Shown one piece after another: positions 6,674 to 62,359 of a DNA stretch of 64,000 nucleotides; position 1 is the stretch's first letter, and each line of letters begins with the position of its first letter. The DNA comes from Mnemiopsis leidyi (taxonomy: Eukaryota). The stretch covers positions 9,850,715 to 9,914,714 of the forward strand of contig CM108483.1 in assembly GCA_048537945.1 (NCBI GenBank), given 5' to 3'. Below the pieces are notes generated by a model. That model was not told the DNA's origin and did not search any database. It worked only from the letters and a program-made list of their open reading frames with translations. Position numbers and translations under genes: made by a program.

Positions 6674-7528
6674 TCACTTCTCCACTTTCTTAAAAAATGA
6701 AGACATCGACTTCATGCCTTTTGTGTTAACACTGGCCAACTGCTTTTGTCCTTTAGTAAGTTTTTGGGCCTTCTCCTTCCCTTTTGGCATCGAACTTTTG
6801 GCAGGTTTACAAGCATCTTGATCCACCCTATGATTTAGTTTAGGTTTCTTGGCAGGCTTTTCTTCATCACAGTCTACACTAAGCTTAACTCCCAGTTTTT
6901 CCTGTAAATCCACTGATAAAGAACGACTGATGTAGTCTGAAACAATTCCACAAGCATATTTTTTGTATTCTTTATCAGATAACGTAGAATTGAATCCTGG
7001 TGATACACCACATTTTTTCATAGCTGCAGCCACTTTATCTACTTTTTCAGATAACCAATTCAAAGTTTTTTCTTTGTTAAATTTTATAATTTTATCGAGC
7101 GAAGGTTTCACATTTGCCACACATGAAAGGTCTGATTCAGACAAAAGATCTTCCAAAATTATAACTGATGGATATTTTTCATCTACAAGAATTTGAGCTA
7201 AAGGCGAATATCTGTCTACATTTCTAAGGAGATAAGGAATTATCATGAAGATAGGGTCTAAAGGAGTGCCAACTTTGAGTTGAGTATCTCCAAGAACATT
7301 GTCATCAACAAACCATGAAATATACTTTTCTTTAACAGATAACAGTTCAAATAACGATTTAGTTTCAGTGCTGAAATAAGCAATGCATGTTTGGTTTTCT
7401 TTTGGGTGCATCAACTTAAGAATTTGTCCTTCTGATTTGGAACACTCATCTGGAAAGATGCAAACTGCACTATTAGACTCAAATGCTGTTCCCATTCTCC
7501 AATCCTGAAAATATAATAACATTTGCAT
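6674..7528 (-). CDS. RNASEH2B: Ribonuclease H2 subunit B, apparently a single coding exon (an ATG at 7495 is also possible after the acceptor ttttcag)
   Basis: The 284-aa ORF aligns along its length with human RNASEH2B: [10 protein letters not shown] vs [24 protein letters not shown] vs [33 protein letters not shown] vs [33 protein letters not shown] vs YIRYAHGLISDYI, and GMKSMSSFF vs GMKSIDTFF. Confidence 0.85.
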   Translation of the reverse strand: [284 protein letters not shown]

Positions 7529-10970: not shown

Positions 10971-11155
10971 ATCTTTTATAAGAATCTCATTAAATCTAGC
11001 AATCTTATCATGTGATAGCTTTCTGGTGTAGCTTGTGTTGATGCCATTTTTATCGTGTTTTAGGTCTTTATTTTCAGTGCAAGCGAAAACCTACAAATAT
11101 CAGACTTCTCCATTGTTTCAACCTTACCGTGTAATTGAATCAATATTTTTTTCAG

Positions 11156-11937
11156 TATTCACCATTTCTGGGTACCCCGAAGACGTCGAACGAGCAAAGA
11201 GAAGAATTGAGGAAGCCGCCGAGCATTTCACCAAGATTCGCCAGGGCCGAGAAAACAACAGTCCCATTACCCCGCAACTCGGACCGAATGCTGTTGTTCG
11301 GCATGTGAGGGTCCCTCTAAAGTACGTCGGCCTCGTTGTCGGACCTAAAGGGCACAACATAAAACGGATTCAAAGCGAAACAGACACGTACATCATGACT
11401 CCTGCTCGTGATAAGGAACCCATCTTTGAGATCCGAGGAGCCCCTGAAAAAGTTGCCGAAGCTGAGAATAAGCTGCAGATTTACATCGCCATGCGAACCG
11501 GAGGAATGTTCGACGATTCGGACCACTTGATCGATGTCGACCTGAAGAAGCCGATGATGCCACCTAAAGCTTTGGACACGTTTGCTTCCATGCAGTCATC
11601 TTTTGGAAGTAGCAAAACCTGGGGAAAGCCTGAGCCCAGTCTCTACAACAATTTCGGAAATTATAACGCTTCTCCGGAGCCTGCTACTCAGCATACCTCC
11701 TGCTTGTTTGACCCGTCAAGAATAGACTTGGATAGCGGATACAGCTCCCCAAACTTTGATAACAGGAAAGATATCCAAGCTTTGAAGATGTTCATCGATA
11801 CAATTCAGCAGTCGATGAATATACAAAACAACAACCTCAACCAACACGGATCGAACTTCCAATCTACTGCAGCTCCCAATCAGCAGCAGCAGGGACAATA
11901 CTTCCCCAACAGATGGTCCCATTCTGGAGTCTTTTAA
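11156..11937 (+). CDS. MEX3: MEX3-like exon 3: end of KH1 (GYPEDVERAKRRIEEAAEHF), KH2 (VRVPLKYVGLVVGPKGHNIKRIQSETDTYIMTPARDKEPIFEIRGAPEKVAEAENKLQIYIAMRTG) and a Q/N-rich tail; stop at 11935-11937
   Basis: The ORF at 11035..11937 has acceptor ttttttcag ending at 11155. It is strongly similar to the human MEX3B KH2 domain. No C-terminal RING finger is encoded before the stop. Confidence 0.85.
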
Positions 11938-23907: not shown

Positions 23908-26003
23908 CATTAGGTAGGTTCATAATGACAAAATATGCCGAAATAATTACAGTACAAAGCTAATCTGTTGCTCCCTAGGCCCAATAACCACAAAAAAAAA
24001 TTTTAGGCCCCAACTCCAACGGGAAACACCTTCACCGGCCACGCCCATTTTTTGGCATCAATTTTAACAGGTAAAAATCACTAAATCTGTGTTTTGGACA
24101 TGAAGGAGTTGATTTGAGGCTCTGGAAGTGCCATACTCAAATATAAACGGTAGGAAAAGGTTAACTTTAGTCAAACTCCCAAGTCTCTAGGATGTTGGGA
24201 AATTCGGGAAACGGGAACGCGGGGCGCGGCGACGCCCCGCGCAGCTTGCGCCTCACCTGAAGGTCCTAGAGTGATGAGACTTTCACTAAAATTAACCTTT
24301 TTCTACCATTTATATTCAAGTATGACACTTTCAAGTACCTCAGTTCACTCTTTCCTATCCAAAATGGCAATTTTACGAATTTTATGTGTTATTGTTTGAG
24401 ACATTGTACGCAAATTTGCTGTTATAAAATAGATAGTATATCATACAAAATTTACACTCATTAACTCTCATAAAAATCTAATAAAACTGTTTTAAATCCT
24501 TCTTGGTCTTGTTCCCGTACTTCCTCTGATGAGCTTCCACCACTTGTATGAGTTCTTGGAAGCTATCCTCATCCCTTGTGATCTTTGTGTTTAACCGGGT
24601 CACAAGTCCCAAAGCCCGCTCACAGGAATCGTTGATGGGAGAGAGGTTCTTCAGTGCTGTACCCAACGTCACATACTCGGGTTGCTCGTTCCAGTCAGGC
24701 TTGGAGAGGAAGTCAAGGGGGGTCTTCAGTAAGTCGAAGAGAAGAGTGGAACGTTCTCCGACAAAATCAACCAGCTCTGATTTCTGGCTGATGGAAGGTA
24801 GGGTAGGCTTCCTGATCTCGACCCATCCTGAGCTTAGTTGAGCAATCCTCTGGGCTATTAGAGTCCGGGTCTGCAGGGAGAGCTGGTCATCGAATAGCAC
24901 AAGGGGAATGAGGTCCTCAGTTAGGTACCAGGTGTGACGAAGAAGAGAGTTGATGAAGGAGAGGAGATCTTCTTTTTCTCTCTGATAGGAAGGAGGAATG
25001 ACAGGGAAGATGAAGGAATCCAGATCCAGGGAATCCCATGAGGTCTTTAGGACTTTAAAGAGTGTGACCTCGGGTGACTTGGTTTCACCGAACAGTTCTG
25101 TGAATGCTGCTCCGACCACGAGTTCGGAAATCAGAGCTGGTTGATTTTGTCGGAGAACGTTCCACTCTCCTCTTCGACTTACTGAAGACCCCCCTTGACT
25201 TCCTCTCCAAGCCTGACTGGAACGAGCAACCCGAGTATGTGACGTTGGGTACAGCACTGAAGAACCTCTCTCCCATCAACGATTCCTGTGAGCAGGCTTT
25301 GGGACTTGTGACCCGGTTAAACACAAAGATCACAAGGGATGAGGATAGCTTCCAAGAACTCATACAAGTGGTGGAAGCTCATCAGAGGAAGTACGGGAAC
25401 AAGACCAAGAAGGATTTAAAACAGTTTTATTAGATTTTTATGAGAGTTAATGAGTGTAAATTTTGTATGATATACTATCTATTTTATAACAGCAAATTTG
25501 CGTACAATGTCTCAAACAATAACACATAAAATTCGTATAATTGCCATTTTGGATAGGAAAGAGTGAACTGAGGTACTTGAAAGTGTCATACTTGAATATA
25601 AATGGTAGAAAAAGGTTAATTTTAGTGAAAGTCTCATCACTCTAGGACCTTCAGGTGAGGTGCAAGCTGCGCGGGGCGTCGCCGCGCCCCGCGTTCCCGT
25701 TTCCCGAATTTCCCAACATCCTAGAGACTTGGGAGTTTGACTAAAGTTAACCTTTTCCTACCGTTTATATTTGAGTATGGCACTTCCAGAGCCTCAAATC
25801 AACTCCTTCATGTCCAAAACACAGATTTAGTGATTTTTACCTGTTAAAATTGATGCCAAAAAATGGGCGTGGCCGGTGAAGGTGTTTCCCGTTGGAGTTG
25901 GGGCCTAAAATTTTTTTTGGTGGTTATTGGGCCTAGGGAGCAACAGATTAGCTTTGTACTGTAATTATTTCGGCATATTTTGTCATTATGAACCTACCTA
26001 ATC
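23908..26003. mobile_element. Large near-perfect palindrome: ~870-bp inverted arms (23908-~24780 and ~25130-26003) around a ~350-bp unique spacer. Possibly a long-TIR or foldback DNA transposon, or an inverted duplication.
   Basis: The sequence at 23925-24530 is the exact reverse complement of 25380-25990. The duplicated ORFs at 24548..24841 (+) and 25085..25363 (-) are identical for 76 aa. The arm tips are attaggtaggttcat. The flanks are …catcctc|arm and arm|cctcatc, a possible CCTC target-site duplication. Confidence 0.75.
24478..25130 (-). pseudogene. Transposase-derived coding fragment with a hAT-like C-terminal dimerisation domain (…DFLSKPDWNEQPEYVTLGTALKNLSPINDSCERALGLVTRLNTKITRDEDSFQELIQVVEAHQRKYGNKTKKDLKQFY*). 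A partial mirror copy lies on + at 25135-25433.
   Basis: The ORF at 24478..25257 spans the spacer and arm 1. The motif pattern (D/W…P.L..lA..L, S.ER.lg.v…R..L) resembles a hAT dimerisation domain. The first ~42 aa of that ORF lie antisense in arm 2 and are not coding. Confidence 0.4.
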
Positions 26004-29026: not shown

Positions 29027-29048
29027 CTGGACGTATAAGTTATAATTT

Positions 29049-29510
29049 TCCAAAAACCAATAAATTGGTTGCTCCCTTTGACCGGGGAGAGTCTCTTGGC
29101 TATTCCCTATTAGAATAAAGTGATATTCCGATTAAGCCCGGGGTAGCAATTAACGTTAACTCCGTCAATTTTCTCTCGGTCGCTTGCTTTTGAATTTTTA
29201 TGGCTACGCGTTGGTAGATTTTTTACCTCACCACTTTGCACTCTTTAATGTTTAATTTTAAAAGTATTTCTATCTTACAAATCTTCATCTGTCATCTACA
29301 ACTTCATCTAAAACTACAACTTACGAGCAAAGCCCGCTTAAATAATACTGGTAAATTTTTAAAAACTCAAAAGCAAGCGACCGAGAGAAAATTGACGGAG
29401 TTAACGTTAATTGCTACCCCGGGCTTAATCGGAATATCACTTTATTCTAATAGGGAATAGCCAAGAGACTCTCCCCGGTCAAAGGGAGCAACCAATTTAT
29501 TGGTTTTTGG
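29049..29510. mobile_element. Foldback or MITE-like element: ~150-bp perfect inverted arms (29049-29200 and 29360-29510) around an ~160-bp loop
   Basis: caaaaaccaataaattggttgctccctttgaccggggagagtctcttggc… is the reverse complement of …gccaagagactctccccggtcaaagggagcaaccaatttattggtttttgg. Confidence 0.8.
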
Positions 29511-30396
29511 AAAATTATATCATTCTTTTTTAGCGCAATCGGGAATATAGTTCAATAGATTGATCAACTTACGACAGTCATAAGACAAATTAAGAGATTT
29601 TGGCTTTTGAAACTATCAGCATCGAGATCACCGTGAAATTCTGTACTAAAATGATGGTCCACTTTTCCTTTTAGCTCAAAGTTGAAAATTCTCATTTTTG
29701 GGCAATTAAGGCCTATTAGGGCCAACTAAGGGGTGTTCTAACAGTTTTCGCACTTTAAAACTATCACCATCGGAATCGCCGTAAAATTTTGCACAAGAAT
29801 GATGGTCTAACTTTTTTTCTAGCCCAAAGTAAAAATTTCGTCTTTTTAAAATGTACTAACTTTAGGACGTCATAAATATATGATAACGTCATAAGACAAA
29901 GTTTTTACCCCACTTAAGTCAATTACTAGTTAACTGCCTTTAAAATCCGGGTTAATTCGTTGTTTTATCGTAAAAAATGTAGAAGTGACAACGATTTGAA
30001 AATGGAAAAATATCAAAAACGACGCAAAAATCCGTCTTTTTGGGAGGTGTCCATTTCATGACGTCATAAAATTATCAAAACAACACTTGAGAAAAATTTT
30101 ACGCCGCGTAATTTGTTAACTAGTATACTGAGTTCAAAATGTGCTGTGTTTCGTTGCTCTATCTTTTAAATTGTTGTCGGAAAATTAATTTGAAAATGGA
30201 AAATCAACGCCAAAATCAAAAAAATTACCAACTTAGGACAGTCATAAGACGATTTTAAAGGGCTAAATCAAAAATCGGGCTTCGCTAGTGCACAATTTAA
30301 TCGATTATCTTCAAAACGCCGTGCTTTTCAAGTCTCTATCTTTTTCATTGCGATCAGAAACTGACCCCCCGTTTTCCCGCCCCAAGCGTCTATCCC

Positions 30397-30427
<31 letters not shown>

Positions 30428-30430
<3 letters not shown>

Positions 30431-31110
30431 TGACCAAAACCCAAAACTTGGGTGTATGTGACCGCTTTTTAAAGACCCTCGATTAAATCGCTATCAAAAG
30501 TATCGCAGCTTAATAAACAACGTTATCTAAATGCGTTAAAAAGGTGTGATATCGAAAGTTCTGACCGCTATTTCTTAACTCGAAAACGGTCGCTTGCTTT
30601 GGCCGTCACGCCATTTGTCAGTTGTCAGGCTCATCAAATTGTTCGACAAAATTTTCAGCTCAAAGAAAGATTGTTAACGCTTTGTACTGAAGTTCGAATA
30701 TTCAGCATGAGGCAGTTATGAACTTGAAGTTGTTCTCTGAGCACTAAAGTGAAGCTAAAATTACAGGTCAACTTGCGGTAGGTCAATATGGACTGCCTAC
30801 AATTATTGAACTTCGGCATTTAACAGTTTAACTTAGATATAAGCAGTATTCCAATAGATTTGAAAGAAATACTCTTTAAAAATGGGAAGGTTTTCATAAT
30901 TTGATGAGCCTGACAACTGACATTAATGGCGTGACGGCCAAAGCAAGCGACCGTTTTCGAGTTAAGAAATAGCGGTCAGAACTTTCGATATCACACCTTT
31001 TTAACGCATTTAGATAACGTTGTTTATTAAGCTGCGATACTTTTGATAGCGATTTAATCGAGGGTCTTTAAAAAGCGGTCACATACACCCAAGTTTTGGG
31101 TTTTGGTCAA
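30428..31110. mobile_element. Second foldback element: ~220-bp inverted arms (30428-30650 and 30890-31110), preceded by an (AT)n tract
   Basis: aaattgaccaaaacccaaaacttgggtgtatgtgaccgc… is the reverse complement of …gcggtcacatacacccaagttttgggttttggtcaattt. Confidence 0.8.
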
Positions 31111-31299
31111 TTTATATCACATCTTTTGGTTTAAGAATGGCCGCTATACGTGCAATAACTGATAGAAGCCTGGTTTAGAACTTTGGATTTGGTGGGATGA
31201 TTGAAGCTGATGTGAAAAGGCATTAAGACAAAGCGATTATCTTTCGACCCATTGCCTTAGAGTTAGTTTAAAATGCATCCTTTAACCTGCTAGGAAGGA

Positions 31300-32260
31300 A
31301 CTTTTAAAAAGTCGATTTTCTCAATTATTAAATATTGCAAAATTTTCAAAATTCACAAACTTTTTCTTCTAATGATGACGTCATAGGGGCGTGGCCTTTT
31401 AATATTTTGAAATGAAACCTAGCCTAAAGCACGCCCCAAACAATTATCTTTTAGACCCTAGGTCGTTTTAAGCTCAATTATGTATCGTTCTTTCGTTATA
31501 AGTTGCACAAAATTGCAGACATTTCACGTGATTTTTAGTTAAAAACGTTTATCTTCATCCGCAATTATCTCGATAATGAAACAAGATAATCGACTTTTGG
31601 AAGACAGCATTCGACAGTAGAAACGATTATCTTTCGTTATCATGGTCTTCGTTTTCACTCAATCTGCATCTTAAAACAATAAAATGAACTTTGAAAAATT
31701 TGGTTTTTGAATTTTCGATAATGAAATTTTTCTAAAAATGATGACGTCATAGGGGTGTTGCCTTTTAACATTTTGAAATGAGACCGAGCCTAAAGCACGC
31801 CCCAAACGATTATCTTTTAGACCCTAGGTCGTTTTAAGCTCAATTATGTATGGTTCTTTCGTTATAAGTTGCACAAAATTGCAGACATTTCACGTGATTT
31901 TTAGTAAAAAACGCTTATCTTCATCCGCGATTATCTCGATAATGGAACAAGATAATCGACTTTTGGACGGCAGCATCTGAAAGTAGAAACGATTATCTTT
32001 CCGCATTACGATCTTCGATTTTTGCTCAGATTGCATCTTAAACCAATAAAATTAATTCTAAAAAATTTGGTTTTTGAATATTCGATGATGAAATTTTTCT
32101 AGAAATGATGACGTCATAAGGGCGTAGCCTTTCAATATTTTGAAACGAGACCTAGCCTAAAGTACGCCCCAAACGATTATCTTTAAGACCCTAGGTCGTT
32201 TTAAACCCAACTATGTATGGTTCTCTCGTTATAAGTTGCACAAAATGGCAGAGTTTGGCG
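31300..32260. repeat. Tandem satellite: ~410-bp unit x ~2.3, each unit carrying a tgatgacgtcata (CRE-like TGACGTCA) palindrome. Related gacgtcataa motifs occur at 29860-30075.
   Basis: Units start near 31325, 31735 and 32100 (…aatgatgacgtcataggggcgtggccttttaatattttgaaatga…cctaaagcacgccccaaac…). Confidence 0.8.
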
Positions 32261-32487
32261 TCTATACCCCTATATATATATATATATATACATACATATA
32301 TCACACGACAATTTGTTTGAAAATGGGGGTTCCAGAAACCCCCCTTCCCGATACCTGTTGACCTTCAAATTTTTTTTGCCATTGGTTTGGACAACTTCTA
32401 GTAGATTTGTAAAGTTTCAAGTTTCAATCTCTATTTTAACATAGTTTTCAAGACACCTGAACATGGCCATTTTTGCCAAATCGTACT

Positions 32488-32709
32488 AATTTTGTATAAC
32501 AGCGCTGGCAAGTTTTTGAACAAAACTTCGATTACTTCTATGTTACATGTTACCACTAACGGAGGCGTTTGGCCTCGGACCGCTGCCTTCGGCAGCGGCC
32601 CTCGGCCAGTTTGAGGGTAGGCTAACAGCCTCAGGCCGCTGCCTTCGGCAGCGGCCTTCGGCCGGTTTGGTGGAAGAAGAAGAAAAAACCGGTCGCGCTT
32701 GCCAGCGCT

Positions 32710-32712
<3 letters not shown>
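32488..32712. mobile_element. MITE-like element with TIRs (taacagcgctggcaagtttttgaac … ccggtcgcgcttgccagcgctgtga) and internal GC palindromes (gccgctgccttcggcagcggcc x2). A second copy lies at 32960-33190.
   Basis: The inverted agcgctggcaag / cttgccagcgct termini are present in both copies. Confidence 0.55.

Positions 32713-32780
<68 letters not shown>
32712..32780. repeat. (TA)n microsatellite (~34 units). Other (TA)n or (AT)n tracts lie at 30400-30428 and 32268-32300.
   Basis: atatatat… seen directly. Confidence 0.95.
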
Positions 32781-32781
<1 letters not shown>

Positions 32782-33306
32782 TCAGACGAAAATTACTGAA
32801 AAAATGCATTTTTTAAGGCGTTACTGCAGACGCACCTTAAGAGATAGAGACTTGAAATTTTCAGGATCACCTAGATACATACTCAAGACAAAAACTGCAA
32901 ATTTTCAAGCTTCTAAGTAATCGGGAAAGTGGTTTTCTGGATAGCCGAGTTTTGAGTTTTACGTAATCGTGTATAATAGCGCTGGCAAGTTTTTCAACTT
33001 TCGTTGAAAACTTTTTCCGAGAGGGGCGCTTGTTTGGCCGAGTCGTCGGGGGCCTTCGGCCCCCTCCTCCGGTAACGGGCCTGCGTCGGGGCCTTCGGCC
33101 CCTCCTTGGCCTAGGCAAAGGGGGCTTTGTTGGGCCCTGGCAAGTGCGGCGGAAGTTTTTTTCCCCGGTCGCGCTTGCCAGCGCTATAATTGACAAAATC
33201 GCATAGTCATATTCTCAAGACATACTTTCCATGCTCTTCTTTTCCAATTTGACGCAACTTGACATCAAGATTTACAAATAGTGGGATGATATAATTTGGA
33301 GCGTAC

Positions 33307-42234: not shown

Positions 42235-43726
42235 TACTACTCACCTCATCGTCTCTTATTGATGCTCCCATCTCAGTGCCACTACAAGAAGAGCTATCCC
42301 ATTTGTCCGAACTGTAGGATTCAGATTTAGAAGCGATATGAGATCTTCTCATCATCCTAGATCGTAATTCCGGTTCAGGTTTTGAAATTTTGTAGCTACC
42401 TCCGATAGACGGTCGAAGAGCGTCCTCTCCACTGATACGTTCGATACTACGACAAATAGCGGTCAATTTTTCCTCTTCATCATGTCTTGGAGGTGCCGAT
42501 TTTACGAAATAATTGTTTCTAGATGAATTCATTTTTATTTCTTCAAGTCGTAACTGTGGTGCTGCACTGAAATGACCTCCAGTGTGGGATGGAAGTGGTG
42601 GAGGCATCGGGGCTGCAGCAAATTGACCCCCATAGTGGGTATGAGGTGTTGGTCCTGCGCTGGGAGGTGGTGGCGGTGCTGCTCCAAATGAAAGTTCTGC
42701 TGGGTTAGATGAGGGCGGAGGACAACTGAATGAAGCTTTGGTCTTCGCAAGAGGTCCTGCTGATTTATATAACATCATGCTTGAGGCTGGAGAGTCAGGT
42801 TGAGAAGAGTACGTCGACAAAACCCTCTTCTTTATAAAGCCACCCGGTGCTGCACTGCCTACACGCTGAGGTGCTGCACTAGGTGCACGTGGAGGTGCTG
42901 CACCAGGTGCACGCGAAGGTGCTGCACCAGGTGCACGTGGAGGTGCTGCACCAGGTGCACGCGGAGGTGCTGCACCAGGTGCACGCGGAGGTGCTGCACC
43001 AGGTGCACGTGGAGGTGCTGCACCAGGTGCACGTGGAGGTGCTGCACCAGGTGCACGTGGAGGTGCTGCACCAGGTGCACGTGGAGGTGCTGCACCAGGT
43101 GCACGTGGAGGTGCTGCACCAGGTGCACGTGGAGGTGCTGCACCAGGTGCACGTGGAGGTGCTGCACCTGGCGGAGGCGGGGGTGCTGCACCTAGTGACG
43201 GCGGGGGTGCTGTCTTATACACGGGTGTTTGTTGAACATTGGTGTTAGTTGTAGTGACTCTGTCAGTAATTGTTCGCCGAGCCATCGATTTGCCAGCTCT
43301 TTTAGAAGGAGCAAGAGGATTGGTGAGAGTTAAAATCCCTCTTTTGGCTAGCGCCTCATCTCCAATATAAGCGTCTTTCTGGCCCATCCCAACCATAACT
43401 CCTTGATGCCTAGGTCTCCCTATAAGAGGTTGGAATAAAGCCGAAGGAGCATCTTCTCCTGCGAATCCAGCTTTGACCATGTAGCTACCCATGTCAAGAA
43501 CCAAAGGTGTACCCAACGACATAGCCTCTTCCTCTTCTTCTAATTCAGAAGAAGAGTCGTCACTCATTAGAGCAGAAACATCAACTTGGGAAGTTTCCTC
43601 AGCAAATGGGCTTTCCAGTTTTCCCAGTACAGCTATTTTACTTACAACCTCGTCTCCAACGTAAGAATCCCTGATAGACATGCCGACCATGACAGATGTT
43701 TCTGAATGTTCAGCAACCAACGACCT
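42235..43726 (-). CDS. PARP4-like copy B: ~497-aa exon. It carries actin-like repeat 1 (second half: [40 protein letters not shown]) and actin-like repeat 2 ([66 protein letters not shown]). These are followed by a 15x GAAPPRAP polyproline array, a Pro-rich region and the KPEPELRS…[12 protein letters not shown] module.
   Basis: The ORF at 42206..43720 has acceptor ttgcag|G (phase 1, completing the AGG Arg from the upstream AG) and donor gag|gtgagt. The actin similarity covers ACTB residues ~8-75 including the D-loop [12 protein letters not shown]. Confidence 0.8.
42850..43200. repeat. 24-bp coding minisatellite (gtgctgcaccaggtgcacgtggag x ~14-15) encoding (GAAPPRAP)n on the - strand
   Basis: A near-perfect tandem array with a few C/G variants that switch Trp and Arg in the spurious + frame. 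The ORFs at 42800..43195 (+) and 42859..43191 (-) are repeat-frame artefacts. Confidence 0.9.
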
Positions 43727-43932
43727 GCAACAATATCCTGTGTCTTTATTTCATTTAAATAAGTTGGTTTCATTACAATATATAAGTAATTAAAAGGTTT
43801 TACTAAAGATTGGACTAGTACTCTTCAAACAAACTGTCTAGAAATTACGTAAACAACAAAATAAAATATGAAAGATACTTAAAATTAAAAATTGGTGCCT
43901 ATCCAATCCAATCAAAGCACTCTTCATCTTAC

Positions 43933-44150
43933 CTGAACACAGCTCGTGGAGCGTCATCTCCCGCAAAACCTCCTTTTATTTTATAAGATCCTAGATCTAC
44001 AACCAGAGTAGAGTCGTCATCATCTTCCTCCTCAGATGAGGAGTCTGCTGTAGATTCATCAGAATCAGAGGATTCAGACACCATAAGATCAGCAGATGTT
44101 TCCTCTAAAAGGACAACACCAGTAACATGTTCAGGATTCTTTTCTTTTGC
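43933..44150 (-). CDS. PARP4-like copy B: acidic stretch plus actin-like repeat 1, first half (AKEKNPEHVTGVVLLEETSADLMVSESSDSDESTADSSSEEEDDDDSTLVVDLGSYKIKGGFAGDDAPRAVF-R)
   Basis: The ORF at 43929..44183 has acceptor cacag|GCA and donor ag|gtaag. It is phase-matched to both neighbouring exons. Confidence 0.75.
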
Positions 44151-48494: not shown

Positions 48495-48830
48495 AAAGTG
48501 TTAATAGGGGGTCCAGAGCAAGCAAACGCTAAGGGCTTGGGTAGCTTAGTGATTATAGCAACAGTCTGGATAACTGGAGATCTCGGGGGTTAAATTCCCG
48601 CTCCAGTCCCCTCGCCTTATTTTCCAACCGGGCTTCTGATTGATGCACATGCCAGATCCTGTTGCTTGCTCACAACCCCCAATTAAGATTATAAAATACA
48701 CCCCGGTAGCAAGTTGGCAATGCTGTACCTTGAACAACCAACAGTGTGTAAAAACATTCAGTTCTTGCTTCCAACAACATTTTCTCATTTACATAGGAGA
48801 AAAAATTCCCCCGAACTACAAACCAGAAGA
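48495..48830. mobile_element. tRNA-derived SINE insertion in a copy-B intron (head gggcttgggtagcttagtgattatagcaacagtctggataactggagatctcgggggttaaattcccgctccagtcccc, with box A-like TAGCTTAGTG and box B-like GGTTAAATTCC)
   Basis: About 330 bp are present in copy B between conserved flanks (…gaggaggaaaagtg | … | cccgaactacaaac…) and absent from copy A at 34690-34745. Confidence 0.65.
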
Positions 48831-57967: not shown

Positions 57968-60900
57968 TCATATGTCTTCTGCGAATGGGTTGTAATCATC
58001 TGCAAATGGGTTAGTGTCCTCCTCATCAAAAGGATTAGGAGCAGGAGAGGGGCTATCTTCAATAAAGGGATTATTGCTTTCTTCTGCAAAAGGATTTATC
58101 TCTTCCTCAGCAAATGGGTTGTTAATCTGTTTGCCATGATCTGACATTTTTGTATTGCGATTATTACCAGGACTTCTTTGAGTACTTCTAGAGGTAGGTT
58201 TAGGAGAGTGGCGACTTGGAGATCTAGATATTGACTGTGCAGGGGATTTTTGAGGTAACTGTGAGTTTTGGAAAGACCTGGTTGAGGCAGTATATACTCC
58301 ATTCTCTGGGCTTCTGAAGTTATCCTCGATTTTTGTTCCTTGTGAAGATGACATCCCAGAACTGGAAGGAATCTTTGAAGTTGACATAAAAGATTCCATG
58401 TCAAGATCAATGTCCTTGTAATAATCTCTGAAATCAGCAGCTAAATCAACATCATAATCGTCATCATTAGAGGCATTACTTTGCTCTTCATCATCGCAAA
58501 GTTCATGTATAAGAGCCATCCTATCTTCACCATTCAATGTCTTTCTCAACTCATTAAAGTTTGCTCTCCATGATTCAAAATGAGTTTGATGGTATGGAAC
58601 ATCAATAGAGATAACACGGCTTAGTATTTTTTGAGTTTTCTTTTTCATAGTTTGATCAGACTCACATAGAACACAATATTTCTGTCTCATGTGTTCGACA
58701 CAATCTGTGTGGGACAGATGAGCACAGTGGAAGATGAAAAAGGTAGTGTCTATTGGAGTGATGTACTGACAGCAAACCACACATATGTTCTTATGAATAT
58801 CAATTCCCCTGACATAATCCACCCTATCCCTCCTCAATGCACTAAAAATGTCATGCTGAACAATTTTCTTGGTACTCTCTAGAAGGACATCTTCATACAT
58901 CAAGGTGTCCAGCATGTTACCAACAACTTTCTTGATGTCTCCATACGTTTTAAATGACTTATTGGATGAGCTTTTAATGAGCTTGTCGAGTACTTTTGAG
59001 GAAGAAACAAATCCAAGCATGTTGTCAATCAATGTTTCCTGCAAGGAGATGCAATCAGTTGCTTCTCCAAGTCCAAGCAATAAATCAATCAGAGAAAACC
59101 AGTAGGATTCTTTGTCATTTTGAGAAAGTTGATCAGAGTTTCTTTGACAGAAATTGATGATTTTTATGAGAGTTTCCTCTACAAAAATAAGTTGCTTGTC
59201 CCGTATGGTGTCCCTGAGTACATCATAATACAATTTGAATGCATCCTCGAGATCACCTCTTGTTTCATAAAGGTATGCTGCAGCATCTTTCAGATTTGCT
59301 ATCAAGCACAATTCCAAAATGGCCTCAATTTTGTAACCAGTTGCAACTTTAAGGTAAGGACACACAAATTCAGGGTTATAGCGTGACATAAGCTTGATAT
59401 AGATGTGATGGATTTCAACATTGTTTATATCAGGATCTTCAGTACCTTTACTGATGTCAAAAACACATTGCAGCAGGGAGTACAGAGTTCTGGGCTGATC
59501 ATCCAACATATAAACAATCTTTTCTATGTCCTCACTGAAGGCCTTCAAGATCAATGTTGCAGTGTCTTCATTATTAATTGCTATTAATTTCCCAATGTTT
59601 TGAACACAAGTCTCCCTTATTTTTGTCTTGACCTCTTCAGAATATGGACCATCCATAATATGATAGATATAAGAAAACACTTTATCAATTCTGCTTGTAT
59701 CAGACCAGTAACAGAAAAGAACTTTGTCATACTCTTTTCTTTTCTCGTATATGATCTCACAAACTTGATAAAATTCTGCTGATTCAGATAATGCTAGCAG
59801 TCTATCTTCATTAAACTCAGTGATTCCAATAGTGAGAACTAATTCTAACAGAGCTTGTTCCCTTTCCTCGTGACCAGTGACATCATTTGTTGCCAGACAA
59901 TCTAAGGCTTGATCCAGATACTTTTTGTCCAGATAGAATGAGTTGACTACCTTTTGACGAGCTAAGAACGTGAAAAGATGTCCAATCTGCAAAGGTGTAT
60001 AATCCTGTCCCTCTTCAATCATCACATGTAGGAGAATATCAATTACGATTTGGTGAATTGGTAGGCACATAGGATGACCGAAAGTGACACTCATCACATT
60101 GAGGAATTCTCTTGTGTCGAGCTTTAGCATCAATTTAACATATGGGTAATCTGGTTCTTGGTACAGGAGATTTTCAGTTTCACTGTGTTTACAAAACACA
60201 TTGTTAAAAACAAGATTTTGAATTCTTACAGTCTCATCAGCATCAATGATTCCCATTGTGTCCGGAATATTACCAATTAGACAGTCACTGATGTACATAA
60301 GGATAACATAGCCTACTTGCTTATGTGATTTGTCCCCTTCAATCAGTTGAGCATGTAGTATATCCAGCAGATTTGTGAGAGGTGTGGAATAGTCCATAAG
60401 ACAAGCATTATAAATAAAAAGTATAGCTTCATACATATCATACTCTTTGCACAAAATCAAAGTATTGTGGATATCAAGGTTTCTTGGGTCCAGATGCAAT
60501 ATGCACTTCTCAAAACTCTGAAGCTTGCCATTTTCTTTAAAGTATTCCAGAAGGTCCTTCATAAGAATTGGATTCAGGGAGCTGATTTTATGATTGAAAA
60601 CGAATGGTTCTAATGTTTCGTAGAACACTCTTTGAATAGCACCAATTTTTGATAGCCTTGTATAAATTTCATCATAAACAAGGTTTGTATTTTTTGTGAC
60701 TATGCTTGCATTTATGCATGTTTTCAAGGCTACCCCTAGCCTAGTAAGATCTTGCTGAGTTTCATCGATATATAGAGAGAAGATGTCAACAATAAGCTCC
60801 ATACAAACATTTTGAACTCTGTCCATATCCCGAAACACCAATGAGGAGACACCTTTTCCCTTGCCCAAGTAAAATGACAAAGTGAGTTCTAGCGCATCAG

Positions 60901-62359
60901 CAAAATGCATGTCATTCTTGAGGTCGACTATTCTCTGACGCCAAGGATTAGATGCTATTTTCATGACATCCTTGCTGCCCAAGAACCATGTACCACCTGG
61001 GTATGAACAAACCGAATTATAGCATGCATATTGAGAGGCAGCAAACATCGCTTTGCTGACATTACCACCAGTCCCCAATGATCGGTAGAAGGCAGTGTTG
61101 TAGCAGAGCCCTATGTCTGAAACATTTGCCACAGTTTGCAGACGTGATAATGTGTGAGCATCTATCAAATGTACTTTCTCAGAAGAATCCAACACAGCAA
61201 TTGTATTGGTATTGAACCAGAATATTGATATAAGTTGAAATTCCAAGCTGCAAGATTTGAGTTTCCTTAAAAATACTTGATCTCTGTTGTTGATATTAAG
61301 ACTGTACATGACAAATCTTTTGCTTCGACCAATGACAAGTTTAGGTCTGGCACAGTCAACTTCATGATAGTACCAATTTATAACAGGGAGAGTTGTTGTG
61401 TCGCCCCATAGGCGCACACTGTACTTGATGTTAGGGTATGGCTTTAGTGAAATAAGCATTACTTGCTTGAAGGTACACAAGCCAACAATACAGTAGGGAT
61501 AAAGTGGGTGATTTTTGGCTACCTTTAGTCTTTGAATGTCTAAAACTTCTCCATGGGATCCAGAAAAAAGACATGTGCTTTCAGAACCTCGGATGGATAA
61601 AGTTTTGGTAAGTCTCACATCAAAGACAGATCCCTGAGATACCATATAAAGCAAGTGGGAACGATCAATGACAACAACTTTGATAACGGTGCTATCTGTG
61701 ACTTTTACTTCTATTTTCTGAAGATGAGAATTGTTCTTCAAATTCCAGACATGTATGAAACCAGTAGCATGAGAGGCAGCAAGGATCCCATCTTCTATGT
61801 CAAGTGATGTAACAGCACCAGAATCATAAACTTTATTGTTTGTTATTTCTCCATTAACTTCACCATCAATTGTCATGGATGAAACTTTGCCTGATCTAAA
61901 TCCAATACATATCAATCGGTTTTTAATGGTGATGGAAGTTGCCTTATCGTCTCTATTACATAATCCACCAAGGAGAGACAGTCCAGTACATTTGACAACT
62001 TCACCATACAGCTTCTTTTTGGTTTTAATCTCATTCGGGATTGTTGCACCTTTCCCAAACGATGAAAATGAACTGCTTGATATGACTGACATAAGATCAT
62101 CTTCAGCAAGAAGTACATTGTCAATATCCTCCCTTAAATCACTGTCAAGTAATGTTATAGGATCATCTTGAGACAATATTTCTTCAAGAGAAGGTAAAAC
62201 TGCAATTTCAGGGATATCAAAATCCTCAAGACCAGAGTTTAGGGATTCTGTATCATGTTCCTCAACAATCTTTTTCAATTGCTGGTTAATCAATTCAGTT
62301 GCTTTGTCTTCAGTATCACGCAACTTGATATCATCCATGACATACCTGAATAATATCAC
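57968..62359 (-). CDS. VPS8: VPS8 (vacuolar protein sorting 8; CORVET subunit), a single uninterrupted ~1450-aa ORF. The start is more likely MDDIKLRD at 62330. It has N-terminal WD40-like, central helical and C-terminal RING-H2 (CVVCCQYI…FHCAHLSHTDCV…CVLC) regions, then six NPF motifs at the C-terminus.
   Basis: The ORF at 57968..62359. The domain order and the RING-H2 spacing match VPS8. The C-terminal tail is NPFAEEEINPFAEESNNPFIEDSPSPAPNPFDEEDTNPFADDYNPFAEDI*. Confidence 0.85.
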   Translation of the reverse strand: MILFRYVMDDIKLRDTEDKATELINQQLKKIVEEHDTESLNSGLEDFDIPEIAVLPSLEEILSQDDPITLLDSDLREDIDNVLLAEDDLMSVISSSSFSSFGKGATIPNEIKTKKKLYGEVVKCTGLSLLGGLCNRDDKATSITIKNRLICIGFRSGKVSSMTIDGEVNGEITNNKVYDSGAVTSLDIEDGILAASHATGFIHVWNLKNNSHLQKIEVKVTDSTVIKVVVIDRSHLLYMVSQGSVFDVRLTKTLSIRGSESTCLFSGSHGEVLDIQRLKVAKNHPLYPYCIVGLCTFKQVMLISLKPYPNIKYSVRLWGDTTTLPVINWYYHEVDCARPKLVIGRSKRFVMYSLNINNRDQVFLRKLKSCSLEFQLISIFWFNTNTIAVLDSSEKVHLIDAHTLSRLQTVANVSDIGLCYNTAFYRSLGTGGNVSKAMFAASQYACYNSVCSYPGGTWFLGSKDVMKIASNPWRQRIVDLKNDMHFADALELTLSFYLGKGKGVSSLVFRDMDRVQNVCMELIVDIFSLYIDETQQDLTRLGVALKTCINASIVTKNTNLVYDEIYTRLSKIGAIQRVFYETLEPFVFNHKISSLNPILMKDLLEYFKENGKLQSFEKCILHLDPRNLDIHNTLILCKEYDMYEAILFIYNACLMDYSTPLTNLLDILHAQLIEGDKSHKQVGYVILMYISDCLIGNIPDTMGIIDADETVRIQNLVFNNVFCKHSETENLLYQEPDYPYVKLMLKLDTREFLNVMSVTFGHPMCLPIHQIVIDILLHVMIEEGQDYTPLQIGHLFTFLARQKVVNSFYLDKKYLDQALDCLATNDVTGHEEREQALLELVLTIGITEFNEDRLLALSESAEFYQVCEIIYEKRKEYDKVLFCYWSDTSRIDKVFSYIYHIMDGPYSEEVKTKIRETCVQNIGKLIAINNEDTATLILKAFSEDIEKIVYMLDDQPRTLYSLLQCVFDISKGTEDPDINNVEIHHIYIKLMSRYNPEFVCPYLKVATGYKIEAILELCLIANLKDAAAYLYETRGDLEDAFKLYYDVLRDTIRDKQLIFVEETLIKIINFCQRNSDQLSQNDKESYWFSLIDLLLGLGEATDCISLQETLIDNMLGFVSSSKVLDKLIKSSSNKSFKTYGDIKKVVGNMLDTLMYEDVLLESTKKIVQHDIFSALRRDRVDYVRGIDIHKNICVVCCQYITPIDTTFFIFHCAHLSHTDCVEHMRQKYCVLCESDQTMKKKTQKILSRVISIDVPYHQTHFESWRANFNELRKTLNGEDRMALIHELCDDEEQSNASNDDDYDVDLAADFRDYYKDIDLDMESFMSTSKIPSSSGMSSSQGTKIEDNFRSPENGVYTASTRSFQNSQLPQKSPAQSISRSPSRHSPKPTSRSTQRSPGNNRNTKMSDHGKQINNPFAEEEINPFAEESNNPFIEDSPSPAPNPFDEEDTNPFADDYNPFAEDI

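Follow-up and report, generated by a model that had tools for sequence, protein, structure and literature searches.

In a 64,000-nucleotide stretch of the genome of the ctenophore Mnemiopsis leidyi (GenBank assembly GCA_048537945.1, contig CM108483.1; hereafter the window), a gene resembling PARP4, the vault PARP, carries two tandem fragments of the N-terminus of actin in the tail of its predicted protein. Sequence comparison indicates that this element is most likely an ancient feature of PARP4, real and functional in frame, which was duplicated in ctenophores and lost in part from a second copy of the gene that lies beside the first. The locus is a further example of a known architecture, with a tandem duplication as its twist, and not a new kind of thing. 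The functions of vaults and of PARP4 have been open for decades, and the sole evolutionary clue so far has been a fast-evolving, disordered exon of the vertebrate gene; the ctenophore locus adds a block of 16 residues, identical to the DNase-I-binding loop (D-loop) of actin, on which very strong purifying selection appears to have acted from a time before the divergence of ctenophores, cnidarians and bilaterians.

Actin-derived segments in the tail of a PARP4-like gene

The window is eukaryotic in composition and organization (G+C ~38%, spliced genes), and all actin-derived segments of the locus lie on its minus strand, with open segments resembling PARP catalytic, VIT and vWA domains upstream of them on the same strand. 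The gene that harbors these segments, described in the initial annotation only as a non-actin gene, is by its sequence a PARP4 (vault PARP) orthologue; it is complete and has the domain order BRCT-PARP-VIT-vWA. By tblastn, residues 4-2253 of the Bolinopsis protein P0121 align in order along it, from a start codon that opens MSEFLFRGDVIFIDG to a last exon that closes with KKKSLLFGFQRCSISNRKRI and the stop codon. Pfam identifies BRCT, PARP, VIT and VWA_3 domains and two Actin stretches in P0121, and VIT together with a weak PARP match in the exons of the window itself. When the PARP/VIT/vWA-like exons were used as a query, with the actin part excluded, the nearest named relative was the uncharacterized LOC134814927 isoform X2 of the ctenophore Bolinopsis microptera (2253 residues, 68% identical). 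A HMMER search with the PARP-VIT-vWA part against 1.84 billion cluster representatives matched, among others, the named PARP4 proteins of Nematostella, Hydra, Sycon, Magallana, Mytilus and Branchiostoma over ~790 residues, with E-values between 1e-112 and 1e-135.

A second complete PARP4-like gene follows in tandem. We refer to the gene with two actin repeats as copy B and to its neighbor as copy A; the two share 77-93% nucleotide identity from exon 1 through the exon that begins repeat 1 (self-BLAST). The motifs LYHAT, GIYFSE and REFCIF, which we take by analogy with PARP1 and PARP4 to provide the catalytic His-Tyr-Glu triad, are intact in the catalytic exons of both copies. In copy B all splice sites from the repeat-1 exon through the C-terminal exon are canonical and in phase, and the actin pieces are read as part of the PARP4-like protein.

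The similarity of these pieces to actin is, at the sequence level, far beyond chance. The Pfam Actin family (PF00022) is matched in two stretches with an E-value of 2.6e-23 and 82.7 bits, against a cut-off of 27, and the match covers only profile positions 6-65 of 410; a phmmer search with repeat 2 aligns it to solved actins at residues 6-71 (E~1e-26). Each unit corresponds to approximately residues 1-72 of actin with an expanded acidic N-terminal run, and is followed in its exon by non-actin sequence. Repeat 1, as first described, is divergent (36 of 65 residues identical to metazoan actin over residues 8-72) and split by an intron in phase 2, which falls in the codon aligned with Pro32 of actin and occupies the same site in copy A and in related genomes. 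Its D-loop has diverged and keeps Met44 and Met47. The minus-strand translation likewise reproduces the peptides originally quoted for both repeats, and the description of repeat 2 as nearly canonical actin, made on a count of 45 of ~65 identities, stands with a slightly higher measured value of 49/65 over the same residues (50/66 by tblastn). The end of the acidic linker between the repeats stands in for the acidic N-terminus of actin ahead of repeat 2.

No part of actin residues 73-375 follows either repeat, and no further actin-like segment was found elsewhere in the 64-kb window beyond the units of copies A and B; open reading frames (ORFs) on the plus strand of the region were set aside as read-through of a 24-bp repeat. 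The absence of the actin core is in agreement with the initial annotation, with one correction: the DNGSG phosphate-1 loop is not missing, since its position is present in both repeats, where it reads DMGSY (repeat 2) or DLGSY (repeat 1) through mutation. Residues 1-32 of actin make up just three strands of the five-stranded sheet of subdomain 1. It is well supported that each segment comprises the acidic N-terminus, the first beta-hairpin and third strand of subdomain 1, and the whole of subdomain 2 including the D-loop. Because residues 73-375 are missing and the phosphate loop is altered, the piece is predicted to be unable to bind nucleotide or to adopt the actin fold, and autonomous folding is unlikely. 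An AlphaFold2 model of repeat 1, linker and repeat 2, built on a shallow alignment of 14 rows, has a mean predicted local distance difference test (pLDDT) score of 34.9, a predicted template-modeling score (pTM) of 0.15 and almost no secondary structure.

Repeat 2 is succeeded by a basic, fast-evolving spacer with 25% amino-acid identity to related genomes, and then by a proline-rich array encoded by a 24-bp tandem repeat (93% matches), after which proline-rich sequence continues to ~42560. An array of this kind follows the fragment in the window, in the orthologous loci of two related genomes (L001 and L002, described below), and in Bolinopsis, Nematostella and Mytilus. The array units differ between the related genomes (PPRAP versus PPPPP), which suggests repeat turnover. 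A 207-bp exon further downstream, ending in SLEGVE, is a duplicate, at 80% nucleotide identity, of the final ~60 codons of the big exon (42397-42215); the exon after it begins with the same VDIEDVVDE motif, no counterpart of the 207-bp exon was seen in L001 or L002, and it may be an extra or alternative exon.

The protein ends in a C-terminal domain that is conserved among ctenophores. A jackhmmer search gave no link from this domain to the C-termini of other PARP4 proteins, Foldseek gave no match to it in the PDB, and Pfam gave no MVP-ID match, although the same copy of Pfam gave none for the Nematostella PARP4 isoform X2 either. Its AlphaFold2 model is all-helical and of low confidence (pLDDT 46.7). 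Because these comparisons did not connect the domain to the MVP-interacting domain of human PARP4, the association of the host protein with vaults is assumed here.

Conservation and origin of the element

Relatives of the window species closer than Bolinopsis are present in the ENA samples ERZ25070731 and ERZ25071805 and in the Logan run ERR13395280. We compared the window with orthologous loci in two ENA assemblies (L001 and L002) and with the A-type paralogues of those genomes (L003-L005). The big exon of both L001 and L002 encodes the two repeats and the proline-rich array, and both loci have the same B-then-A tandem order. Ratios of nonsynonymous to synonymous substitution rates (dN/dS), calculated by the Nei-Gojobori method between the three genomes, are lowest in repeat 2 and highest in the basic spacer and the proline array (Table 1); that of the A-type unit is 0.13-0.31. 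These values support the view that purifying selection acts on the repeats and that they have a function within a non-actin protein. Continuing conversion by actin genes is an unlikely source of the identity of repeat 2, as the derived residues that flank the D-loop (Met12, Tyr15, Ser28, Gln32-Pro33 and Thr68-Asn69) are stable over the three ctenophore genomes while dS reaches 0.7-1.0; micro-conversion restricted to ~50 nt may have occurred.

Copy A has one actin-derived unit, of repeat-1 type and, as first reported, more degenerate (33/65 identical to actin); it has the same phase-2 intron and lacks both repeat 2 and the GAAPPRAP array. The A-type paralogues L003-L005 are alike in carrying a single repeat-1-type unit with this intron and no repeat 2. 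The difference between the copies had been read as expansion or selection in copy B. Loss fits better: since both repeats are already present in the orthologue of Bolinopsis, a more distant relative than the other two genomes, and the A-types of those two genomes carry only repeat 1, copy A most likely lost repeat 2 and copy B did not expand. Over the 5' two-thirds of the genes, copies A and B within a genome share 94-97% protein identity, compared with 81-94%, depending on the region, for orthologues between genomes. In the tails, A clusters with A and B with B across genomes. This pattern points to concerted evolution of the enzymatic half by gene conversion, and to an old divergence of the tails.

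The element is also found in PARP4 outside the ctenophores. We scanned the best 150 PARP4-like representatives (P0125-P0274) against repeat 1, repeat 2 and actin, and found an actin N-terminal fragment in six of them, always C-terminal of the VIT-vWA block. An alignment of 14 fragments from six phylum-level lineages was assembled, comprising the ctenophores together with Nematostella, Hydra, Magallana, Mytilus and Macrostomum. The non-ctenophore proteins carry one fragment each, of repeat-2 type and at the same site as in ctenophores. All PARP4 fragments have an acidic run in front, start near actin residue 5-8 and end between 62 and 72; Asn12, Gly15, Ser33 and Gln59 of actin are replaced in every one, and replacement of Lys68-Tyr69 by small polar residues is common to ctenophores and cnidarians. 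A 16-residue D-loop block identical to that of actin is unchanged in repeat 2 of each of the four ctenophore sequences and in the fragment of each of the five other taxa, and is not kept in repeat 1 or the copy A unit. The conserved pattern consists of this block, preceded by Val or Ile and followed by x-Y(V/I)G-x-EA.

From these alignments it is well supported that repeat 2 is the old element, descended from the actin piece found at the same PARP4 position in cnidarians, bivalves and a flatworm. Repeats 1 and 2 have ctenophore-specific states in common (Met/Leu12, Tyr15 and Ala72), which identifies repeat 1 as an internal duplicate; that this tandem duplication took place within the ctenophores, ahead of the split between Bolinopsis and the window species, is equally well supported by the sequences. 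The PARP4 actin piece probably stems from one ancient capture out of an actin gene. The original proposal that the repeats are captured, truncated modules and not pseudogenes is borne out in so far as they are truncated, in frame, canonically spliced and under purifying selection; what falls is capture at this locus, as the same fragment is present in other PARP4 genes.

It had further been suggested that shared actin exon phases would indicate exon capture. The outcome is mixed. In the Nematostella fragment (L011 31452-31553 and 32335-32532) a phase-0 intron falls precisely at the boundary of actin codons 41 and 42, the classical animal actin intron site, and this favours the capture of genomic actin exons. 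The codon-32 phase-2 intron of the ctenophores is not known to coincide with a classical actin site, and neither repeat 2 nor the Mytilus fragment (L012 50233-50619) has an intron. A second intron of the Nematostella fragment lies at codon ~7 in phase 1. Two points weigh against this account of the origin. The shared changes at positions 12, 15, 33 and 59 could reflect parallel relaxation after the loss of nucleotide binding and not common descent; and the 41/42 intron is found in Nematostella only, at a CAG/G proto-splice site where parallel gain is possible.

Some sequences were excluded from these comparisons. The best matches of the first homologue search, P0001 and P0004-P0007, are mis-modelled actins with duplicated exons (P0002 and P0003 were usable), and the candidate own-species actin loci P0079 (L007), P0024 (L008) and P0078 (L009, L010) come from unrelated samples. 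One of these samples, ENA ERZ26167977 from another eukaryote, contains actin genes (L008 4001-5480; L009 4001-5428) in which the first exon supplies an N-terminal extension of ~100 residues, beginning MGIKLSKARVYATAV, before normal actin.

Possible roles of the actin-derived tail

The architecture is already recorded in the literature and visible in database annotation, and is uncharacterised. Perina et al. (2014; DNA Repair 23:4; PMC4245714) noted an extra domain at the C-terminus of some PARP4-like proteins, 'e.g. actin', listed the actin domain for Salpingoeca, Capsaspora and Acanthamoeba, and reported other PARP4-like proteins with actin or actin-binding domains. Those proteins belong to the same family, with the same BRCT-PARP-VIT-vWA order, the Pfam/SMART actin match C-terminal of VIT-vWA, and a likewise variable tail that holds 14-3-3 or ubiquitin-related domains in other species. 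The paper is silent on truncation, whereas the segments described here span residues ~1-72, are in tandem and evolve under strong purifying selection. A literature search for 'PARP4' with 'actin domain' returned no further description of the fragment. We found no account of its restriction to residues 1-72, of the frozen D-loop, of the duplication in tandem, or of the spread over ctenophores, cnidarians, molluscs and a flatworm.

The window repeats lie in the largest exon of their gene, at the same relative position as human exon 30. In vertebrate PARP4 this is the largest exon; its sequence is hypervariable, and in primates and bats it shows positive selection (Daugherty et al., 2014; PMC4038475). 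It is disordered and lies between the ITIH-like block and the MVP-binding domain, and contacts with pathogen factors have been suggested for it (PMC4038475; Suskiewicz et al., 2023; PMC10450202). The window exon is likewise predicted to be disordered, and evolves fast in both sequence and length outside short conserved islands. The two differ in that the vertebrate exon is under positive selection while the ctenophore actin core is under extreme purifying selection, and in that no actin remnant is detectable in the vertebrate exon; a hidden Markov model built from the fragments detected no degenerate remnant in the other 144 representatives, which may or may not include vertebrates.

Other conserved proteins are represented in the tail of the same 150 representatives. 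Ubiquitin is present in 15 (including Euglena, Diplonema, the gastropods Biomphalaria and Plakobranchus, and Sinanodonta), 14-3-3 or pieces of it in 13 (including dictyostelids, Branchiostoma (amphioxus) and Entosiphon), and a substrate-binding fragment of Hsp70 in six (oysters and others); half of a calmodulin occurs in a Bodo saltans protein and in P0184, and P0168 has a weak match to the histone H4 tail. The panel of modules was limited to conserved proteins, so the hub-protein pattern is suggestive only. Because 14-3-3, calmodulin, ubiquitin and Hsp70 substrate-binding pieces occupy the same site in other lineages, the sequences suggest that the tail is a partner-recruiting region of PARP4.

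We tentatively favour a docking role for the actin-derived segment. As selection fixes the D-loop block, which is no less conserved than in actin, and the acidic run preceding it in a piece that is unlikely to fold, the fragment would serve as an exposed mimic of the D-loop and subdomain-2 face of actin, held in a disordered tail, and would dock onto the usual binding partners of that face. The D-loop is a target of several regulators and, in F-actin, fits into the cleft at the barbed face of the next subunit; the simplest candidate partners would be a second actin, contacted at its hydrophobic barbed-face cleft, or actin regulators that bind the D-loop. Acting with the proline-rich array beside it, the fragment would couple the ADP-ribosyltransferase and its vault to actin or to actin-associated clients, a role that the pattern of conservation makes possible rather than probable. 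The layout recalls the WH2 repeats of Spire, Cobl and VopL, the GAB-FAB region of Ena/VASP and the FH1 region of formins, which are likewise short, unfolded tandem segments beside a proline-rich array, and both the D-loop and WH2 engage the barbed-face cleft of actin. The likeness to WH2 proteins is one of layout only, since Pfam finds no WH2 match in the tail at E<=0.1. In contrast to those binders, the segments here derive from actin itself and their actin binding is only proposed, and the host is an ADP-ribosyltransferase and not a nucleator. The primate POTE-actin fusions, in which a recent, full-length actin retrogene lies in frame with an unrelated gene, share the property of being in-frame fusions; they differ from the present case, which is ancient and internal and involves only the N-terminal fifth of actin. 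The locus provides a clean case of a non-folding actin fragment re-used as a functional element, and the D-loop block a short peptide handle for finding partners of PARP4, one that would tie the enzyme either to the actin cytoskeleton or to actin-targeting pathogens.

Several observations stand against a docking role. The proposed mechanism has its basis in a pattern of residue conservation. The RPRHQG part of the D-loop is lost in repeat 1 and in copy A, yet both are constrained, and the D-loop is therefore not the whole story. Most proline units in the window are PPRAP, and not the long polyproline typical of profilin ligands. The AlphaFold2 alignment is shallow, so its low pLDDT is weak evidence of disorder; the C-terminal domain is not linked to the human MVP-binding domain, leaving vault association as an assumption; and the patchy distribution, with fragments in six of 150 representatives, implies that the function is dispensable or replaceable.

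In the main rival reading, drawn by analogy and in our view somewhat unlikely, the tail is an integrated bait or decoy that displays copies of conserved hub proteins (the actin D-loop, ubiquitin, 14-3-3, calmodulin and Hsp70) to pathogen effectors. An effector drawn in this way might be ADP-ribosylated, be trapped at the vault, or cut the tail and so free the enzyme, in the manner of nucleotide-binding leucine-rich repeat (NLR) decoys and of the NLRP1 tripwire. Bacterial toxins classically use actin, calmodulin, 14-3-3 and ubiquitin of the host as cofactors or targets, and the distribution is patchy, with different hub-protein pieces at the same site in a lineage-specific fashion. Fast flanks (dN/dS 0.6-1.4) around a frozen, actin-identical core are as expected of a mimic of an invariant target, and in the AlphaFold2 model the actin piece appears to lack an autonomous fold. 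The repeats also sit where the hypervariable, positively selected human exon 30 is found (PMC4038475; PMC10450202). Plant NLR integrated decoys and the NLRP1/CARD8 tripwires resemble this arrangement in having a piece of a conserved host target in a variable region, a repertoire that varies by lineage and a suspected role in defence; they belong to a different host family, and the comparison is by analogy only. Against a bait, an immune role of PARP4 is shown in no invertebrate, and there is no known effector that recognises only actin 1-72. The 14-3-3, ubiquitin and calmodulin lobes themselves bind partners, which a plain adaptor role would explain equally well, and the enrichment in hub proteins is biased by a panel made up of conserved proteins only. 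The ubiquitin domains of P0125 and P0126 end in RGG-Pro, a junction that resists deubiquitinases, and this argues against a cleavage tripwire, at least for ubiquitin. A wider form of the proposal, that the PARP4 tail exon is a eukaryote-wide rack of baits (D-loop, ubiquitin, 14-3-3, calmodulin, the Hsp70 substrate-binding domain and possibly the H4 tail) luring effectors to a vault-housed ADP-ribosyltransferase, we consider unlikely; were it true, PARP4 and vaults would constitute an ancient system for sensing or trapping effectors, with the ctenophore actin repeats among its oldest baits.

The segment could instead act in cis, as an internal acceptor or pseudosubstrate, or as an autoinhibitory or activating peptide for the PARP4 catalytic or VIT-vWA domains. 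The intact His, Tyr and Glu motifs of both copies and a tail that is predicted to be flexible enough to reach the enzyme are compatible with such a role, and inter-domain contacts within human PARP4 have been suggested by AlphaFold-based work (Suskiewicz et al., 2023; PMC10450202). We judge it improbable, because it leaves unexplained why identity to actin should persist over hundreds of millions of years while the PARP4 domains fall to 35% identity, and many PARP4 orthologues are without the element.

The reading first proposed, in which this lineage alone captured actin exons into an unrelated gene and the number of repeats then rose or was favoured by selection in copy B, would account for two units in copy B against one in copy A, and for the derived residues common to both repeats as a product of internal duplication. 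It is very improbable given that cnidarian, mollusc and flatworm PARP4 have the same element, and that the difference between copies is old, both repeats being present in Bolinopsis and repeat 2 being absent from the A-types of two other genomes. Abundant transcripts such as that of actin often yield retrocopies, and disordered tails tolerate insertions, but a non-functional remnant or an error of assembly or of the gene model (an intronic actin pseudogene fragment, for instance, or a chimeric contig) can be dismissed, as repeat 2 is well inside a 1480-bp open exon whose splice sites are canonical and whose phases are correct, the same arrangement recurs in independent assemblies (L001, L002 and Bolinopsis RefSeq), and dN/dS falls to 0.03 at dS 0.7-1.0.

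Feature coordinates and neighbouring DNA

Table 1. Features of the PARP4-like locus in the window, with substitution ratios between the three ctenophore genomes, and the actin-derived fragments of PARP4 in other animals (protein residues)
Feature	Location	Strand	Basis or description	dN/dS
Copy B, complete PARP4-like coding region	53110-39448	-	tblastn of Bolinopsis P0121	
Exon with Ser/Asp/Glu-rich acidic run (44078-44013) and repeat 1 first half	44150-43933	-	translation, splice sites	
Repeat 1, first half	44012-43933	-	STLVVDLGSYKIKGGFAGDDAPRAVF(R), actin residues ~6-32; alignment to actin	0.19-0.28 (whole of repeat 1)
Intron splitting repeat 1, phase 2	43932-43725	-	donor AG/gtaaga, acceptor ttgcag/G	
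Largest exon, 1480 bp	43724-42245	-	variable tail between VIT-vWA block and C-terminal domain; splice sites, phases, dN/dS	
Repeat 1, second half, 40 residues	43723-43604	-	actin residues ~33-72; alignment	
Acidic linker, 31 residues	43603-43511	-	alignment, translation	0.16-0.35
Repeat 2	43510-43313	-	actin residues 6-71, ends ILTLTNPL; Pfam, solved actins, alignment	0.03-0.10 (dS up to 1.0)
Repeat 2 D-loop core, 17 residues	43423-43373	-	alignment	
Basic, fast-evolving spacer	43312-43208	-	dN/dS	0.7-1.4
24-bp tandem array, 14.6 copies	43212-42862	-	(GAAPPRAP)n / GAAPPPPP; Tandem Repeats Finder (TRF), self-BLAST	0.6-1.4
Downstream copy B exons	41604-39451	-	207-bp exon 41604-41398; C-terminal-domain exon 41298-40201; 40064-39948; last exon ends 39451	
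Short copy B exon	between ~39800 and ~39700	-	boundaries read by eye from sequence	
Copy A, second complete PARP4-like gene in tandem	~38005 to ~21298	-	tblastn, self-BLAST; 21298 is the end of the homology match, not a mapped stop codon	
Copy A actin-derived unit, repeat-1 type	27128-27049 and 26867-26748	-	tblastn, alignment	
Nematostella vectensis PARP4 fragment	residues 1487-1555		XP_032219397.2	
Hydra vulgaris PARP4 fragment	residues 1258-1323		XP_065649889.1	
Magallana gigas PARP4 fragment	residues 1259-1325		K1PUC2	
Mytilus edulis PARP4 fragment	residues 1293-1355		CAG2205451.1	
Macrostomum lignano PARP4 fragment	residues 948-1013		A0A1I8HY60	

The tail of copy A contains an 876-bp inverted repeat just past the end of the big-exon ORF, with arms 99.4% identical (23909-24784 and 25127-26002), which encloses a 259-codon ORF (24478-25257) with no Pfam match; a mobile element of the foldback type or an error of assembly is the probable source. 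Copy A also has ~4.2 kb more intronic DNA than copy B (29042-33238), in which a 220-bp inverted repeat (30423-30640 and 30898-31117) and a tandem duplication (31358-32252) are found. On the opposite strand of a copy B intron, Rfam gives a tRNA match at 48535-48609 (+) that is barely above threshold (29.9 versus 29 bits). The neighbouring genes comprise an intronless, 1463-codon VPS8 homologue at 57968-62359 (-; Pfam Beta-prop_VPS8, E=1.5e-66), an ORF resembling RNase H2 subunit B at 6674-7528 (-) and an exon of a KH-domain protein at 11035-11937 (+); in the related genomes, a UDP-glycosyltransferase follows the A copy.

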